Assembly (NCBI GenBank): GCA_964514135.1
Contig: CAZEPL010000008.1
Location: forward strand, 5,701 to 69,700
Reading direction: 5' to 3'
Source: an uncultured Spirochaetaceae bacterium
GTDB lineage: Bacteria > Spirochaetota > Spirochaetia > SZUA-6 > RPPD01
DNA length: 64,000 nt
The notes below the pieces were generated by a model. That model had not been told where the DNA came from. It saw only the letters and a program-made list of their open reading frames with translations, and searched no databases. Within the stretch, counting starts at the first letter, position 1. Each line of letters starts with the position of its first letter. The position numbers and the translations under genes are program-made. Positions 43,896-50,896 of this stretch are shown here, piece after piece.

Positions 43896-44216
43896 ATGTC
43901 TATTCTGCCCATTGACCTCCAGATTCTTTTCTCTCAGATGAATCAAGTGGGAAAAGAGCAGGCCATACAGAAAGATGGCAATGCAATTCATCAGTCACTT
44001 CAGGGGATGGAGCTGGTAAAAAATACCGAGCAGAAAGATAGTTCTGTAAATCAAAGTAAAGATATCGGCGAAGGCTTAGAAAAAATAAAGAATGAAGAAA
44101 ACAAAAAGAAGGAAGAGCGGGAAAGAGAAAAAAATGAAAAAAAAGAACAAGCAGAGCATAAAAAAACAGTATTTGCAGATCCTGATTTAGGTAAGCATAT
44201 TGATATAATGGGATAA
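43896..44216 (+). CDS. Hypothetical small K/E-rich protein
   Basis: 106 aa. ATG directly abuts the FapA stop. Highly charged (NEENKKKEEREREKNEKKEQAEHKK). No recognisable motif. Confidence 0.45.
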   Translation: MSILPIDLQILFSQMNQVGKEQAIQKDGNAIHQSLQGMELVKNTEQKDSSVNQSKDIGEGLEKIKNEENKKKEEREREKNEKKEQAEHKKTVFADPDLGKHIDIMG

Positions 44217-44226
44217 TAAACATTTT

Positions 44227-44676
44227 ATGGAATCCTTTCTTTTTATTATAGCATGTCAGTTGATCAGTTTTTTATTACTCTATATTTTTTTAAAGCGCAA
44301 ACTCGATAAGCAATATTCGAAACAGGGTCAAATTGAAAGCATTGAACATGAAGTTGAAAAGATAATTATCGAGTTAAATCAAACAACAGCACGTAATATA
44401 GGATTGATTGAAAATAAGTTAAAAGAAATCGAAGCACTGATGGGTACCACGGACAAAAGACTGAATATTCTTAGGCGTGAAAGCGAGAAGCATGATTTAA
44501 GTAAAAAAGTATATAATAATCTTATGGAAAGCAGTAATCAACATAAGAACAGGAACATCAAAGATGAAGTAATCAGACTCTATTCCAGCGGCTTTCCATC
44601 CGAGATGATTGCCAATCAGTTAGGAGCTTCAGTCGGAGAAGTTGAGCTTATTATATCCTTAGCAGAGAAAAAGTAA
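44227..44676 (+). CDS. Hypothetical single-pass membrane protein with coiled coil and C-terminal HTH-like segment (positional analog of B. subtilis SwrB)
   Basis: N-terminal TM helix (FLFIIACQLISFLLLYIFL), a coiled coil, and a C-terminal DEVIRLYSSGFPSEMIANQLGASVGEVELIISLA segment. Confidence 0.5.
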   Translation: MESFLFIIACQLISFLLLYIFLKRKLDKQYSKQGQIESIEHEVEKIIIELNQTTARNIGLIENKLKEIEALMGTTDKRLNILRRESEKHDLSKKVYNNLMESSNQHKNRNIKDEVIRLYSSGFPSEMIANQLGASVGEVELIISLAEKK

Positions 44677-44700
44677 TAACTATACTGCTCTCTTTCTACC

Positions 44701-44731
44701 TTGACAACATAATAAATAATAGGTATATAAT
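44701..44731 (+). promoter_or_regulatory. Strong sigma-70-type promoter for the ffh-rpsP-rimM-trmD-rplS operon (TTGACA-N17-TATATAAT)
   Basis: TTGACA at 44701-44706, a 17-nt spacer, extended -10 TATATAAT at 44724-44731. Confidence 0.55.
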
Positions 44732-44757
44732 CATAGGTTAGGTAGTTTGGTGGTACA

Positions 44758-46086
44758 ATGTTAGATGGATTAAGTAAAAAATTTACAGATATTATTCGAC
44801 ACATAAGCGGCAAGGCAGCAATAAGCGAGAAGAATATTGAAGCTGTAATTAATGAAATTAAAATTGCCTTACTTGAAGCGGATGTTAATTTACGGGTAGT
44901 AAGAAGATTTGTAAATCATACTACTGAAGACGCATTGGGCGCGAAGGTAGTATCGGGAGTAACTCCAAGTCAACAGTTTATTAAAATAATTCATGACCGT
45001 CTGGTAGGGCTGTTGGGCGAAAACAGGCAGGAGCTCATGTTAAAAGGACCGGATACTCAATCCGTAATTCTTTGTTTGGGGCTTCAAGGTTCGGGTAAAA
45101 CTACTACTGCCGCAAAATTGGCAAGTCTGCTAAAGAGTAAAAACAGAAAAACTCTCTTGGTAGCAGCGGATCTTATAAGGCCGGCTGCAATCGAGCAGTT
45201 ATCAATATTGGGCAAACAGGTCGGAGTGGAAGTATATAAGGAAGAAAAAAGCAATCCGCTTAAAGTAGTAAAAAACTCTATTAAATATGCTGAAAAAAAT
45301 CAGTTTGATACGATCATCATCGATACATCCGGGAGATTACATATTGATGAGTATATGATGAAAGAAATTGAAGATATTAAAAAGACAGCCAAGGCGGATG
45401 AAGTACTATTGGTTGCCGATGCTATGACAGGACAACATGCGGTAGATATTGCCAAAGAATTTAATGAAAGAGTAGAAATTACAGGTGTTATTTTAACTAA
45501 ATTTGATTCTGATACCCGCGGCGGTGCCGCTCTTTCTATAAAAAGCGTTACCGGAAAATCGATAAAGTTTATAGGGGTTGGAGAAAAGATAGAAGATATT
45601 GAGCCTTTTTATCCGGATCGAATTGCCTCACGCATATTAGGTATGGGCGATATTGTAACACTGGTGGAAAAGGCACAAGAAACAATAGAGCTTAAAGAAG
45701 CCGAAGATTTACAGAGAAAGATTGAATCAAAAACATTTGATTTTGAAGATTATTTGGATCAATACAGAAGAATGAAAAAAATGGGCAATATGCGCTCACT
45801 TATTGAAATGATTCCCGGTTTAAAAGGAAATATCGATCCTGATGGCATCGATATGAACGATATGAAAAGAGAAGAGGCAATAATTCTTTCTATGACAAAA
45901 AAAGAAAGGAAAAATCCGCGAATTATTGGTCCGGGCAGACGGAAGAGAATCGCAAAGGGATCGGGAACAGCAGTGTTCGATGTAAATAAACTACTTAAGA
46001 AATTTGAAAAAACCAAAGCTATGATGAAGAAAGTAAGTAAAAATAAAGAATATCAAACACAAATGATGTCTCGTTTAGGCATGTAG
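44758..46086 (+). CDS. ffh: Signal recognition particle protein Ffh (SRP54)
   Basis: N domain, G domain (GLQGSGKTTTAAKLA, DTSGR), and methionine-rich M domain (RRMKKMGNMRSLIEMIPG). Confidence 0.96.
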   Translation: MLDGLSKKFTDIIRHISGKAAISEKNIEAVINEIKIALLEADVNLRVVRRFVNHTTEDALGAKVVSGVTPSQQFIKIIHDRLVGLLGENRQELMLKGPDTQSVILCLGLQGSGKTTTAAKLASLLKSKNRKTLLVAADLIRPAAIEQLSILGKQVGVEVYKEEKSNPLKVVKNSIKYAEKNQFDTIIIDTSGRLHIDEYMMKEIEDIKKTAKADEVLLVADAMTGQHAVDIAKEFNERVEITGVILTKFDSDTRGGAALSIKSVTGKSIKFIGVGEKIEDIEPFYPDRIASRILGMGDIVTLVEKAQETIELKEAEDLQRKIESKTFDFEDYLDQYRRMKKMGNMRSLIEMIPGLKGNIDPDGIDMNDMKREEAIILSMTKKERKNPRIIGPGRRKRIAKGSGTAVFDVNKLLKKFEKTKAMMKKVSKNKEYQTQMMSRLGM

Positions 46087-46122
46087 TGATATTATAGATA
46101 ATCTATGAAGGAGGTTAACACT

Positions 46123-46368
46123 TTGAGTGTAAAAATAAGGTTAAAAAGACTTGGAACAAAAAAGCGACCTTATTATCGAATTGTGGTGATGGATTCACGT
46201 GAGCCTCGTGATGGGCGCTCACTTGAGGAAGTTGGATTCTATCATCCGATAGAAGTTGAAGAAAAACAACTCATGATAAAGGAAGATCGTATAAATGAGT
46301 GGTTACAAAAAGGGGCAAAACCGAGTCACACCGTTAAAAAACTCTTAAAACGAAAGAATATTCAATAA
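46123..46368 (+). CDS. rpsP: 30S ribosomal protein S16
   Basis: TTG start after an AAGGAGG RBS gives MSVKIRLKRLGTKKRPYYRIVV. The ORF-track start at 46105 reads through the RBS. Confidence 0.93.
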   Translation: MSVKIRLKRLGTKKRPYYRIVVMDSREPRDGRSLEEVGFYHPIEVEEKQLMIKEDRINEWLQKGAKPSHTVKKLLKRKNIQ

Positions 46369-46401
46369 TTTTAAACACTTAATATATGAAAGGAGTTAAT
46401 C

Positions 46402-46635
46402 GTGGAGAAAGATCTTGTTGAGTACATTGCAAAAGCACTGGTTGATGACCCGAGTGGAGTTAATGTTAATGTTATTGAAGGAGAAAAATCAACCATCCTG
46501 GAACTTAAAGTCGCCGATGGCGACATCGGGAAGGTCATTGGTAAACATGGTAGAATTGCCAAAGCAATTAGAACCATATTAAGTGCTGCGGCAACAAAAA
46601 AGGAGAAGAGGGTAGTATTAGAGATCCTGGATTAA
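46402..46635 (+). CDS. KH-domain RNA-binding protein (YlqC/UPF0109 family)
   Basis: GTG start. [20 protein letters not shown]-type motif. Conserved position after rpsP. Confidence 0.85.
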
Positions 46636-46655
46636 GTGATTTAATCGCAGTTGGG

Positions 46656-47135
46656 ATGGTTCTCTCGAGTTATGGCACAAAAGGTTTTTTAAAAGTAAAG
46701 AGTTTTTCGGGAGAAACCAAACATTTTTTTAAAATTCAAAAAGTGTATTTACTAAAAAATAAACAATATGAAACTTTTTTTATAGAAAAGATTCAAAACG
46801 CCCATAAAGCGCTTTTAATAAAAGTGCAGGGTATTAATTCACCTGAGCAGATTAATAAATATCTCAGGTGTGAAATATGGGTAGAAAAGAAATATGCAAG
46901 TCCTTTACATAAGGGCGAATATTATATCAGCGATCTTTATAAATGTAATGTTTTTTTAAAAAGGAAAATGGTGGGACATGTCAAATCCGTATGTGAAGGC
47001 GCACATGCAGATCTGCTTGAAGTATTAGATGAGAATAATAAATTAATTATAATACCATTTTTGGATCATTTTATCGGAAAGGTTGATATAAAAAATCAAC
47101 GTATTTATTTAAGAGAGGATTGCATGCTGCTGTGA
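46656..47135 (+). CDS. rimM: 16S rRNA processing protein RimM
   Basis: Conserved position between the KH protein and trmD. N-terminal beta-barrel-like GxxxKxxG pattern (YGTKGFLKVKSF). Confidence 0.75.
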   Translation: MVLSSYGTKGFLKVKSFSGETKHFFKIQKVYLLKNKQYETFFIEKIQNAHKALLIKVQGINSPEQINKYLRCEIWVEKKYASPLHKGEYYISDLYKCNVFLKRKMVGHVKSVCEGAHADLLEVLDENNKLIIIPFLDHFIGKVDIKNQRIYLREDCMLL

Positions 47136-47818
47136 TTTTTACGGTCATCACTCTTTTTCCTGAGGTGTTTAAAGAATTTTTAGGCTGCTCTATAATTGGC
47201 AGGGCTCTTGAAAAAGAGTTAGTATGGGTAAACCTGGTAAACTTAAGGGATTATGCATATGATAAGCATAAGACCTGTGACGACAGCCCTTATGGAGGCG
47301 GTGCCGGTATGGTGCTCAAGGCAGAACCGTTGGCTTTAGCTCTAAATGCAGTAGGAGTAAAAGGAAAAAGAATTATTTATCCGTCAGCAGGCGGGAGACT
47401 GCTTAATCAAGAGAGAGCAGCACAGTTGGCAGCCGAAATAGAATTAGTTATCGTTTGCGGGCATTACGAAGGTATTGATCAAAGGATAATTGATACATAT
47501 ATTACAGATGAGATATCTATTGGTGATTATATTGTTTCATCCGGAGAAACAGCTGCTATGGTAATGATAGATGCCATAACACGATTATTAAAGGGTGTGA
47601 TTAGTGAAGATTCATTAGAGGAAGAAAGCTTCCAACAAGGTCTTTTAGAATATCCGCAATATACGAGACCGAGAGAAATATTGGGCTTAAAAGTTCCGGA
47701 AGTATTGTTGAACGGAAACCATAAAGAAATACAAAAATGGCGTTTGGAACAGAGTTTTAAAAAAACGCTCAAAAATAGATCTGATTTAATTACGGAAAAC
47801 AATTTACAGGAAAGCTAA
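47120..47818 (+). CDS. trmD: tRNA (guanine37-N1)-methyltransferase TrmD
   Basis: SPOUT knot motifs (IFTVITLFPEVF, DDSPYGGGAGMVLK, VCGHYEGIDQR). Confidence 0.95.
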   Translation: MHAAVIFTVITLFPEVFKEFLGCSIIGRALEKELVWVNLVNLRDYAYDKHKTCDDSPYGGGAGMVLKAEPLALALNAVGVKGKRIIYPSAGGRLLNQERAAQLAAEIELVIVCGHYEGIDQRIIDTYITDEISIGDYIVSSGETAAMVMIDAITRLLKGVISEDSLEEESFQQGLLEYPQYTRPREILGLKVPEVLLNGNHKEIQKWRLEQSFKKTLKNRSDLITENNLQES

Positions 47819-47846
47819 GAAAAATAAATAAGAAGGGAGAAAAGAA

Positions 47847-48476
47847 ATGGATCTTATAAAGGCTTGTGAAGCAGAACAGATAAGAGATGATATAAAGAAT
47901 TTTAATATTGGTGATACGGTTAAAATTCATTTCAAAATCATTGAGGGGAAAACAGAGAGGGTACAAGTATTCGAAGGTCTGTGCATAGCAAAGAAGAATA
48001 CAGGTATTAGGAAAACTTTTACCGTAAGGAAGATATCCTATGGGATTGGCGTGGAGAGAACCTTCCCTCTGCATTCACCCAAAATTGTAAATGTAGAAAT
48101 TATTCGGGTTGGACGTGTAAGAAGAGCAAAACTTTACTATATCCGGAGCAGGGTGGGTAAAGCTGCCAAAGTAAAAGAGTATATTCAGAAAAAGGAATCC
48201 AAAGAAACTCTTAAGAAGAGTAAAAAAGCCACGAAGACCAAACCAGCTGAAATTGAAGCTGTAAAAGAAACGGTACAACAAGAACAAAAAGTAAAGACGG
48301 AGGGCAAGACCAACTCAATTAAAACGAAAACTATGGTCAAGAAAGAGACCGAAGATACAAAAGTTAAAAAAGCGACCACGGAGTTAAAAACCAAAAAAGA
48401 GACTAAAGAAACTGCAGTTAAAAAGAAAGCTGCTCCTACGGTAATAAAAGAGGATAATAAGAAAAAAGAGCAATAA
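47847..48476 (+). CDS. rplS: 50S ribosomal protein L19 with roughly 90-aa lysine-rich C-terminal extension
   Basis: The L19 core spans residues 1 to about 115 ([23 protein letters not shown]...[13 protein letters not shown]...RRAKLYYIR). It is followed by a K/E/T-rich tail ([27 protein letters not shown]...[18 protein letters not shown]). Confidence 0.9.
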
Positions 48477-49492
48477 TGGATCCAATTGATATAGACAGAA
48501 ATGTCCAAATAAAATTAACCGCCGGATTTCAAGCTGCCCTGAAATCCGGCGATTTTGTTTATATAAGTGTTATAAAAAAAGTGGCCGTTCATAAATGGGC
48601 AATTGGTATCCATGGGAAAACCGTGCCTGCCTATTCAGATATTGAGCTGCAACCTGGTGATATAATTAAGGCTCAGGTGCGTATTCAGGGTAATAAAATA
48701 AATCTAAAATTAGTAGAAGATAAAGAAAGCTTATTACAGGAAAAATTAATACATCAGGGCATAGCAAACGATAAACTTTCTTTACTTATTATCTCCAGCT
48801 TAATAAAAGGTGGATTGGCAGTAGACGCCCATATTATAAGTAAAATAAAGCAGTTATTAAAAACACTTAAAAAAGAGGACAGAGGTATAATTGCATTGCT
48901 TATTCAGGTATTAAAAAAAGGCATTTCGTTGGATTCGCCACAGATTCATGAATTGTTATCACTGTTAAATTACGGTGAAAAGAGAAAAGAAAATAAGCAA
49001 CGAAAAAGAAAGCAAGAAAATGATTCGCACAAAGTCAAAGCAGAACAAGCAATAAAAGAGTCTATTATAAGGTGTGATGACAGTATCAATAATATACTGG
49101 CACTTTTTAATCAGCTCAAAGCGGAAGGTGAAAATTGGATTATCATTCCGTTTGATTTTAGCTTAGAACAAACTGATCTAAGCGGAACAATCAGATTGCT
49201 TTATGATGCATATAACAAAAAAGTATTAAAAGTGTGTGTGATTGTATGGGCAAATGAAGAACAAAAGTGGAGTTTTTTTATAAATTCTGAAAGCATACCC
49301 CGGACTATGACGATATATTGCAGTAAAAAGCATATGCTTAAGAAAGCAGCAGGCGGACTTCATGAATTAGCATTAAAATTAGATAACAACAATGTAAAAA
49401 TTGACGATACTAAATTTGAGGACGAAAATTTAGATGGTTTTTATCCCTTGGATGAGGTAAACTATTATAAAAGTATTAATACACTGCAATAG
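48476..49492 (+). CDS. YlqG-like protein (putative FliK-like, Flg_hook-type C-terminal region)
   Basis: Position after rplS and before a FlhB-C-like gene, as for B. subtilis ylqG-ylqH. The C-terminal segment (GTIRLLYDAYNKKVLKVCVIVWANEEQKWSFFI) shows the alternating pattern of FliK C-domains. The match is weak. Confidence 0.45.
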   Translation: MDPIDIDRNVQIKLTAGFQAALKSGDFVYISVIKKVAVHKWAIGIHGKTVPAYSDIELQPGDIIKAQVRIQGNKINLKLVEDKESLLQEKLIHQGIANDKLSLLIISSLIKGGLAVDAHIISKIKQLLKTLKKEDRGIIALLIQVLKKGISLDSPQIHELLSLLNYGEKRKENKQRKRKQENDSHKVKAEQAIKESIIRCDDSINNILALFNQLKAEGENWIIIPFDFSLEQTDLSGTIRLLYDAYNKKVLKVCVIVWANEEQKWSFFINSESIPRTMTIYCSKKHMLKKAAGGLHELALKLDNNNVKIDDTKFEDENLDGFYPLDEVNYYKSINTLQ

Positions 49493-49527
49493 GATGATTT
49501 TGATAAAATGGTGAGTGAATAGAGAAA

Positions 49528-49770
49528 ATGGAAAAAGCTGTTGCTCTTAAATACACCCGTGAACTTCCTGCTCCGTTCATCATAGCTAAAGGGAAAGGCG
49601 ATCTTGCACGCAAAATCAGGACAATAGCGGATGCTAATGGAATATCCATTGTAGAAAATCATATGTTAACTGAAGGACTTATTGAATTGGAATTGGGATC
49701 TTTAATACCAGAAGAGTATTATGAAATAATCGCAAAAATATTTGTCTTTGTAGCACAATTTGGAGTGTAA
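49528..49770 (+). CDS. Stand-alone FlhB C-terminal-domain homolog (YlqH/FhlB-like)
   Basis: 80 aa. [48 protein letters not shown]...[16 protein letters not shown] aligns with FlhB after the NPTH site. Compare this window's own FlhB (AVALEWERLIMAAPTLVAKGADMIAHKIKEIALENEVPVVENKPLAQALY...IPEKYYEVIATILAEIY). Confidence 0.85.
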
Positions 49771-49771
49771 A

Positions 49772-50896
49772 ATGATTGAAATCGCTACTGTAAATCTTAA
49801 ACCCGGAATGAAATTTGATGCTCCAGTATACATTGATGATAAAAATATTCTCGTGCCTCCGGGAATACCAATAAAAGCAAAAGATATTGAAAGATTGAAA
49901 AGGTGGGAAATAAATACCGTACGCACTAATGGGAGTGAAATCAAGGATGAGAGTGACCAGACAAAGGTTTCACATGAGCTGCTTTTTGAATTGGAGCCGG
50001 AAGAGAAACAATGTCTCGATGCATATTATCAATTCTTAACAAAATTAACCGAGGTGTTTACAGACATTAGAAAGCAGAATAAGATTTCCCATGATAAAAT
50101 TGATAGAATTGTCAATGATTTATATTTACATGTAAAAGAACATAAAAATAAAATGATCCAACTCGTACTGCAGTCGGAAAAACATGCAGACGATCTCACA
50201 ACAAACTCTATTAATTGCACGATTATCTCAATAGTAATCGGCTTGATTTTGAAGACCATAAGTCACAGGATCCTTATCCTCGCTACGGGAGCATTACTTC
50301 ATGATGTAGGAATGCTGCGGATTCCGGAAGAAATTGTCAACAAGAAAGCGGATCTGACGGCTAAAGAACTAAATATGATTAAAACTCATCCAATATATTC
50401 GTATACGATAATTTCCAAGGAATTAAAATTTGCTGATGAAATTGCTCAGATCGGGCTTTACCATCAAGAAAGGTGGGATGGTAAAGGATATCCTAAACAA
50501 TTAAATAAAGAAAACATACCTCTCTTTGCCCGAATTGTAGCAGTAGCTGATTCATATGTGGCTATGGTAAAAGAAAGACCATATAGAGGGCATATGATAG
50601 GGTACGACGCTATTAAAACTATAATCAGTGATAATTTTAAAAGATTTGATCCCAACGTTGTTAAAGCATTCTTGAAAGGTATGGGAATATATCCCATCGG
50701 TAGTATCGTACTGCTCAATAACGGCGCTCTTGGGAGGGTAAACGAGATAAATAGTGACGCACCGTTAAGGCCTAAGATTGATATATTAATTGACGAATAT
50801 GGAGATAAATTACAGGAGAGCACGAAGATGGATTTATTAAAAAGTGGGGATTTTTTTATTGTACGCGCTGTTGATAAAAAAGTAGTGCAGATGTGA
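49772..50896 (+). CDS. HD-GYP domain cyclic-di-GMP phosphodiesterase-type protein
   Basis: HD motif ([17 protein letters not shown]) and GYP motif ([11 protein letters not shown]). N-terminal accessory domain. Confidence 0.85.

Follow-up and report, generated by a model that had tools for sequence, protein, structure and literature searches.

C-terminal extensions of the ribosomal protein bL19 are a known kind of feature: bacterial bL19 chains in the PDB are 113-130 aa long, with the exception of those from Thermus (146 aa) and Deinococcus (166 aa). In Thermus thermophilus and Deinococcus radiodurans, the additional residues are lineage-specific and lie past a core of ~113 aa, and the T. thermophilus extension has been described as species-specific (PMC5137454). 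In another bacterial group, the CPR, enlarged L19 has been reported among other ribosomal proteins, together with an S19 whose C-terminal region is rich in Ala and Lys (bioRxiv 10.1101/2022.01.07.475337). Within the spirochetes, new proteins and a uL30 extension were described for the Borrelia ribosome, and no bL19 extension (PMC10618245); literature searches turned up no description of a long bL19 tail in spirochetes. A more distant comparison is offered by eL24, which replaces bL19 in eukaryotes and has a C-terminal extension of ~60 aa that reaches h6/eS6, but which only partly resembles bL19 structurally and belongs to a different protein family (PMC10156603).

Here we describe a bL19 with a 97-aa C-terminal tail rich in Lys, Thr and Glu, found in a 64,000-nucleotide stretch of DNA from an uncultured Spirochaetaceae bacterium (contig CAZEPL010000008.1; hereafter, the window). 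It has the features of a lineage-specific ribosomal-protein extension: it shares one ORF with the core, is restricted to a clade, keeps its reading frame and has a dN/dS below 1. Like the Thermus and Deinococcus extensions, it is an addition past the core of the same protein family, but those add only ~30-40 aa, and most Thermus PDB chains are modelled to about residue 131-138 (meaning that the extension is partly ordered), whereas the window tail is predicted to be fully disordered. No shared ancestry with these extensions is evident, since the tailed spirochete L19s nest among short spirochete L19s. The tails of CPR type are likewise compositionally biased, clade-restricted C-terminal additions to conserved proteins, with uncharacterized function, but they are A/K-rich and come from another phylum, while the window tail is K/T/E-rich and unusually long relative to its host protein. 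The likeness to eukaryotic and archaeal eL24 (bridge eB13), which sits beside uL14 in the place of bL19 and carries a basic C-terminal extension, goes no further than analogy: where eL24 has a conserved, mostly helical extension, the window tail is predicted to be coil and evolves fast. The window protein is bL19 by every profile and does not belong to the eL24 family. As bL19 extensions go, the 97-aa K/T/E-rich one of these spirochetes is new and unusually large.

The rplS gene and its C-terminal tail

The rplS ORF (47847..48476, + strand) has 209 codons and a TAA stop, and a Shine-Dalgarno-like AAGGGAG (47833..47839, +) lies 7 nt 5′ of its ATG. Residues 1-112 (47847..48182, +) make up the bL19 core. 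Pfam PF01245 (Ribosomal_L19) matches residues 3-111 (6.5e-48; 161.7 bits against a cut-off of 22; profile positions 2-110 of 111), the NCBIfam equivalog TIGR01024 (rplS_bact) matches residues 1-112 (5.3e-47; 158.6 bits against a cut-off of 90.7; profile positions 1-113 of 114), and L19 chains in the PDB match the protein at 1e-39. Because the profile matches end at residue 111-112, the extension comprises residues 113-209 (48183..48473, +). The first-pass annotation had placed the end of the L19 fold at about residue 115, which agrees well with this boundary; it had also described a K/E/T-rich, low-complexity continuation of the same ORF, correctly as to character, although its estimate of about 90 residues falls short of the actual 97. 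Across 52 relatives, 40 columns of the core are invariant. The gene is the last of a cluster in the order ffh, rpsP (S16), a gene for a KhpA-type KH protein, rimM, trmD and rplS, and S16, the KH protein, RimM and TrmD are found directly upstream of rplS in the window and in all relatives looked at. Profiles, core residues together with the predicted fold, and gene neighborhood all identify the protein as bL19, and by these sequence comparisons the gene is the organism's ordinary rplS with a complete bL19 core.

The surroundings of the cluster also deserve a brief description. The trmD ORF is listed from a TTG (47120-47135 / 47132; 232 aa) and overlaps the end of rimM, and gene callers place the start four codons later (228 aa) on identical contigs; the true start is ambiguous. 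At its other end, rplS and its downstream neighbor share a TAATG (48474..48478, +) in which stop and start codon overlap, as opposed to a gap of 2-5 nt between the two genes in relatives. This neighbor encodes a conserved 338-aa protein without a Pfam or NCBIfam match (48476..49492, +) and is always followed by a gene for a stand-alone 80-aa protein resembling the FlhB C-terminus (49528..49770, +; TIGR00789 flhB_rel, below cut-off) and by one for an HD-GYP-type protein. These three genes keep their order in every spirochete relative looked at, tailed or tail-less, and the 338-aa and FlhB-like genes may be an uncharacterized flagellar-export-related pair. In the first part of the window (~1-44200), nearly all large ORFs lie on the + strand in one long, tight run, which ends before ffh with a sigma-70-family (FliA-like) gene, a Jag_N/FapA protein, a 106-aa unknown and a DUF6115 protein; the run resembles a spirochete flagellar/motility superoperon leading into the ffh-rplS cluster. 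No tRNA genes were found in the window.

The tail adds 87% to the length of bL19 and has a strongly biased composition: 31 of its 97 residues are Lys (32%), 16 are Thr (16%), 14 are Glu (14%) and 2 are Asp (E+D 16%), with no Arg and with 7% Ala, 7% Val and 2% Pro. Its net charge is +15, its pI 9.9 and its GRAVY −1.54. With a charged-residue fraction of 0.48 and a net charge of +0.15 per residue that is evenly distributed along its length, it can be classed as a net-positive, strong polyampholyte. Of the 173 ORFs in the window that reach 60 aa or more, this one contains the 40-aa stretch densest in lysine; such richness is not a general habit of every protein here. The coding DNA of the tail is 53% A, with T at only 3% of first codon positions. 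Internal structure at the sequence level is sparse. Relatives keep a proximal IQKK(E/D) motif (residues 113-117), and a small island, ETVQQE (residues 141-146; 48267..48284, +), is conserved in 7 of 8 aligned tails in the form (E/Q)-T-V-(Q/V/I)-(Q/E/K)-(E/Q). Further along lies a degenerate internal duplication (48338..48424, +; family D1 of the repeat search), consisting of two 33-nt copies that are 79% identical and 54 nt apart. Tandem Repeats Finder detected no tandem array in the tail, and a recent microsatellite-like expansion was rejected: the single degenerate duplication is all that there is.

AlphaFold2, run with a 52-sequence alignment, modelled the core with confidence as a beta-rich fold (residues 1-90, pLDDT 72-92), gave low confidence over residues 92-113, and left residues 129-209 as coil with pLDDT ~27-32. 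The sole secondary structure predicted in the tail is a short, low-confidence helix at residues 119-127 (KETLKKSKK; 48201..48227, +; DSSP on the AlphaFold2 model, pLDDT ~55-59), and the tail is predicted to be disordered. Searched alone, it matched nothing in Pfam or in the PDB at E ≤10, and an exhaustive phmmer search of 1.84 billion representative proteins gave no match at E ≤1e-3; HMMER bias correction blunts low-complexity queries, so these results mean only that the tail holds no recognizable domain. A word index of 5.8 billion proteins also returned no match to the tail alone, but this null is not evidence: local phmmer at the same database size recovers two relatives, P0001 (9.5e-29) and P0002 (6.8e-4), so the null reflects the limits that low-complexity sequence sets to word indexing.

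An extension of this kind could in principle be produced by a sequencing or assembly error, a missed stop, a frameshift, or fusion with a downstream ORF. A-rich low-complexity DNA is error-prone, and two L19s in the database carry exact internal duplications of ~50-90 core residues on short contigs (P0009, 171 aa, 1.3-kb contig; P0010, 253 aa, 3.5-kb contig), which look like assembly artefacts rather than biology. For the window gene, however, an artefact is extremely unlikely. The identical 209-aa protein turns up on at least eight contigs, and the rplS DNA is 100% identical to that of the window in four fetched loci from independent assemblies: three SRA runs (SRR8556697, SRR8556701, SRR8557033) and one JGI metagenome (3300031356). 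Five diverged relatives also keep the tail frame open, with every indel in frame, whereas the +1 and +2 frames over the tail contain 5 and 10 stops. At the 39% GC of the window, the expected spacing of stops is ~15 codons, and the arithmetic probability that 97 codons stay open by chance is ~0.002; given this value and the same open frame in several diverged relatives, chance does not explain the tail ORF. Nor does the tail DNA contain any A-run longer than 6 nt. Avoidance of A-runs of 7 nt or more is significant in the window (p ~0.02), but two relatives show it only marginally and two others not at all, and this inconsistency makes it too weak as evidence for selection on translation or frame fidelity. 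Fusion with a separate downstream ORF was rejected, as gene order is unchanged in tail-less relatives and no additional ORF separates rplS from the conserved next gene there: in one relative with a short L19 (P0013, 126 aa; locus L010), the same downstream gene begins 94 nt after rplS with no ORF between them. The first-pass annotation had itself worried about a missed stop or frameshift, and about stops after the core in close relatives; neither of the former was found, and the closest relatives all keep the tail.

Two other readings of the same DNA were also considered and rejected. An antisense ORF of 107 aa (48185..48508, −) would encode a very hydrophobic, F/L/S/V-rich and meaningless-looking product, and since K/E/T-rich sequence lacks the sense codons TTA, CTA and TCA, the frame stays open in every relative, which makes the ORF a mirror artefact of codon usage and not a gene. 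An RNA element in or around the tail was rejected on the lack of any Rfam match at E ≤1 in 44000-50000.

Distribution and evolution of the tail

The closest relatives of the window protein (92-68% identity) have in-frame tails of 86-102 aa, and a sister group has tails of 54-56 aa. The long-tailed proteins are P0001 (207 aa, 92% identity to the window protein), P0002 (208 aa, 72% identity, from the Spirochaetales MAG GCA_016930675.1), P0003 (198 aa, with an in-frame tail) and P0004-P0006 (204-214 aa, from uncultured Spirochaetaceae, CAZWKE01); P0007, P0008 and P0011 (166-168 aa) carry the shorter in-frame tails. In P0001-P0008 and P0011, the tail continues in frame past the core and is alignable with that of the window. 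On a neighbor-joining tree of the L19 core (52 sequences), the K/T/E-tailed proteins are monophyletic, in keeping with the clade specificity that had been suspected at first pass. Their nesting is regular: P0011 (54-aa tail) is followed by P0007 and P0008 (56 aa) and then by a long-tail subclade, in which P0004-P0006 (92-102 aa) stand beside P0002, P0003, P0001 and the window protein (86-97 aa). The median tail among all 52 spirochete relatives on the core tree is 14 aa, and early ends, such as that of P0013, occur only in more distant spirochete L19s. A scan of GTDB species genomes yielded one tail-bearing relative (L005), one ordinary 113-aa L19 (L006) and no more. Tail-bearing MAGs include GCA_016930675.1 and GCA_964638895.1, and GCA_007693945.1 is an example of a tail-less relative. 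The core tree indicates a single origin of the tail, within a small clade of uncultured Spirochaetales/Spirochaetaceae, where it was ~55 aa long at first and grew to ~90-100 aa in one subclade. The likely route is elongation of the short basic C-terminal end common to all bL19s, not gene fusion.

Other spirochete L19s have tails of a different nature. A second, separate clade (P0052, P0064, P0108, P0101 and P0073) has A/P/S-rich C-terminal tails of 23-44 aa, and P0010 ends in an acidic, Pro-rich tail of ~60 aa; the bL19 C-terminus has thus been extended repeatedly, with differing compositions. Separately, two 146-aa proteins (P0079 and P0081) have a 22-aa N-terminal extension (MRKKPPAGKVERVTNIEKGVTD) ahead of the normal MDLI start, which is probably a mis-called upstream start codon.

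The tail and the core differ sharply in their rates of change. Between the window and P0002, the core has dN 0.043, dS 1.12 and omega 0.04, and the tail has dN 0.361, dS 1.15 and omega 0.31; between the window and P0001, the tail omega is 0.35. These are rough estimates, being pairwise Nei-Gojobori values over a low-complexity alignment with dS nearly saturated. The tail dN is ~8 times that of the core (p = 2e-14), and tail identity is 48% where core identity is 91%, falling to 28-32% in the next subclade. Still, the tail shows significantly less nonsynonymous than synonymous change (Fisher p = 4e-5 for the P0002 pair; binomial p = 0.033 for the P0001 pair), which points to relaxed but significant purifying selection. 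What is conserved is mostly general character: length within the long-tail subclade, the charged-residue fraction (0.41-0.48 across relatives) and positive charge, which is always kept, although the net charge ranges from +3 to +26 and falls as low as +0.08 per residue. The fast divergence and variable length fit a weak, mostly compositional constraint, and they could also fit the absence of any specific function. Taken together, the tail is almost certainly real, confined to one clade, maintained in frame, under relaxed but significant purifying selection, predicted to be disordered and without a detectable homologue.

Possible roles at the subunit interface

The position of bL19 in the ribosome gives some indication of what such a tail could do. 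bL19 and uL14 form bridge B8 with 16S h14 (PMC10156603), and the two proteins contact h14 and h44 (PMC11814078). Residues 104 and 106 of bL19 are exposed, YchF was bound in the groove between uL14 and bL19, and RsfS binds uL14/bL19/H95 (PMC11814078). Because residues near the C-terminus of bL19 are solvent exposed at the rim of the 50S interface, the tail probably emerges there, by extrapolation from other species. It would then be a flexible, basic arm that holds on to rRNA by electrostatics, and its target could be the 30S body (the h6/h14/h44 region) or neighboring 23S helices; such a contact would stabilize subunit association or ribosome integrity, as the eL24 extension crosses at the equivalent place. 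A disordered chain of 97 aa has a contour length of ~350 Å and an expected end-to-end distance of ~70 Å, so by this argument (which is one of length only) a tail leaving at residue 113 could reach either the 30S body or the 23S helices. The functions proposed at first pass were extra rRNA contacts, reach to the 30S subunit, membrane association and moonlighting; of these, contact with rRNA or the 30S subunit is the one that the literature on bL19 position makes plausible. We favor such a contact over the alternatives, though at somewhat less than even odds: the location of the tail is borrowed from other species, its sequence diverges quickly and its length varies, its net charge spans a wide range among relatives, and, where the eL24 extension is helical, the tail is predicted to be coil. 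As a whole, a translated, disordered bL19 tail of single-clade origin with a putative rRNA/30S contact is the best explanation, and one that we hold with confidence only a little below the halfway mark.

A bolder form of the same idea would make the tail a bacterial counterpart of the eL24 extension, forming a new clade-specific intersubunit bridge or serving as an inter-ribosome tether in hibernation, possibly with co-evolving changes in 16S h6/h14 or 23S H62. This is rather improbable; if true, an eB13-like bridge would represent convergent evolution in a bacterium. Alternatively, the tail could act on factors that dock at uL14/bL19, such as the anti-association factor RsfS, YchF or bL38, rather than bridge to the 30S subunit; by occluding or recruiting them it would tune the silencing, hibernation or splitting of ribosomes. 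With its start at residue 113, the 97-aa tail would leave bL19 at this very docking site: YchF contacts residues 104 and 106, near the C-terminus, RsfS sits on uL14/bL19/H95 (PMC11814078), and Borrelia bL38 lies close to uL14 and bL19 (PMC10618245). A fast-evolving tail is a poor fit to a specific protein-protein interface, however, and we consider this role improbable. Least likely among the functional readings, and in our view very unlikely, is moonlighting in nucleoid or DNA binding in the manner of linker-histone tails or Hc1-/AlgP-type proteins. The label "histone-H1-like" in the first-pass annotation holds insofar as the tail, like the C-terminal domain of histone H1 and the bacterial H1-like proteins, is lysine-rich, basic and predicted to be disordered. 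H1-type composition combines very high Lys with Ala and Pro, almost no acidic residues and S/TPKK-like motifs, and the H1 C-terminal domain has a net charge of roughly +40 per 100 aa. The tail is more acidic and Thr-rich (16% each), poor in Ala (7%) and Pro (2%), devoid of S/TPKK or KPAA-type motifs, and of far lower charge density (+15 over 97 aa, and lower still in some relatives), so that the label fits only loosely. It likewise finds no homology behind it in Pfam, the PDB or the 1.84 billion representatives, and the attachment of the tail to a ribosomal protein that is stoichiometric and buried in the 50S subunit also speaks against DNA binding.

The serious rival to rRNA/30S contact is a largely neutral one: a tolerated low-complexity expansion without specific function, at an exposed bL19 C-terminus that allows additions. 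By this account, A-rich codons (AAA, GAA, ACN) would accumulate in an AT-rich genome after loss of the stop or through slippage or duplication, and selection would only keep the tail soluble, non-toxic and in frame. The rapid nonsynonymous change, the fall in identity to ~30% within the clade, the range of tail lengths from 54 to 102 aa and the degenerate internal duplication all favor it, as do the lack of a domain or strongly conserved motif and the independent tails of other composition on spirochete L19s (A/P/S-rich in the P0052 group, acidic in P0010). On the other hand, an omega of ~0.3 is significantly below 1, and the tail has outlasted the saturation of synonymous sites (dS >1), with its length roughly held at 86-102 aa across three sublineages and its net positive charge kept throughout. 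Even the short-tailed P0007 and P0008 retain the ETVQQE-like island. In addition, nearly doubling a protein present once per ribosome would be costly, and loss of a useless tail would be expected. Neutral expansion strikes us as somewhat unlikely.

If the tail is merely tolerated, it adds another ribosomal-protein C-terminus to those that accept low-complexity growth, and the finding is mainly a matter of annotation: long L19 genes like that of the window should not be "corrected". The place where it is attached is nonetheless a sensitive one (bridge B8, which is linked to ram phenotypes, the h44 contacts, and the docking of RsfS and YchF), and in this lineage the tail could alter how subunits associate, how faithfully they decode or how ribosomes are silenced. 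Should it contact the 30S subunit, nature would have provided a bacterial example of protein bridges of the eukaryotic type arising from low-complexity tails, and the series from 14 to ~55 to ~97 aa would document the path to such bridges.
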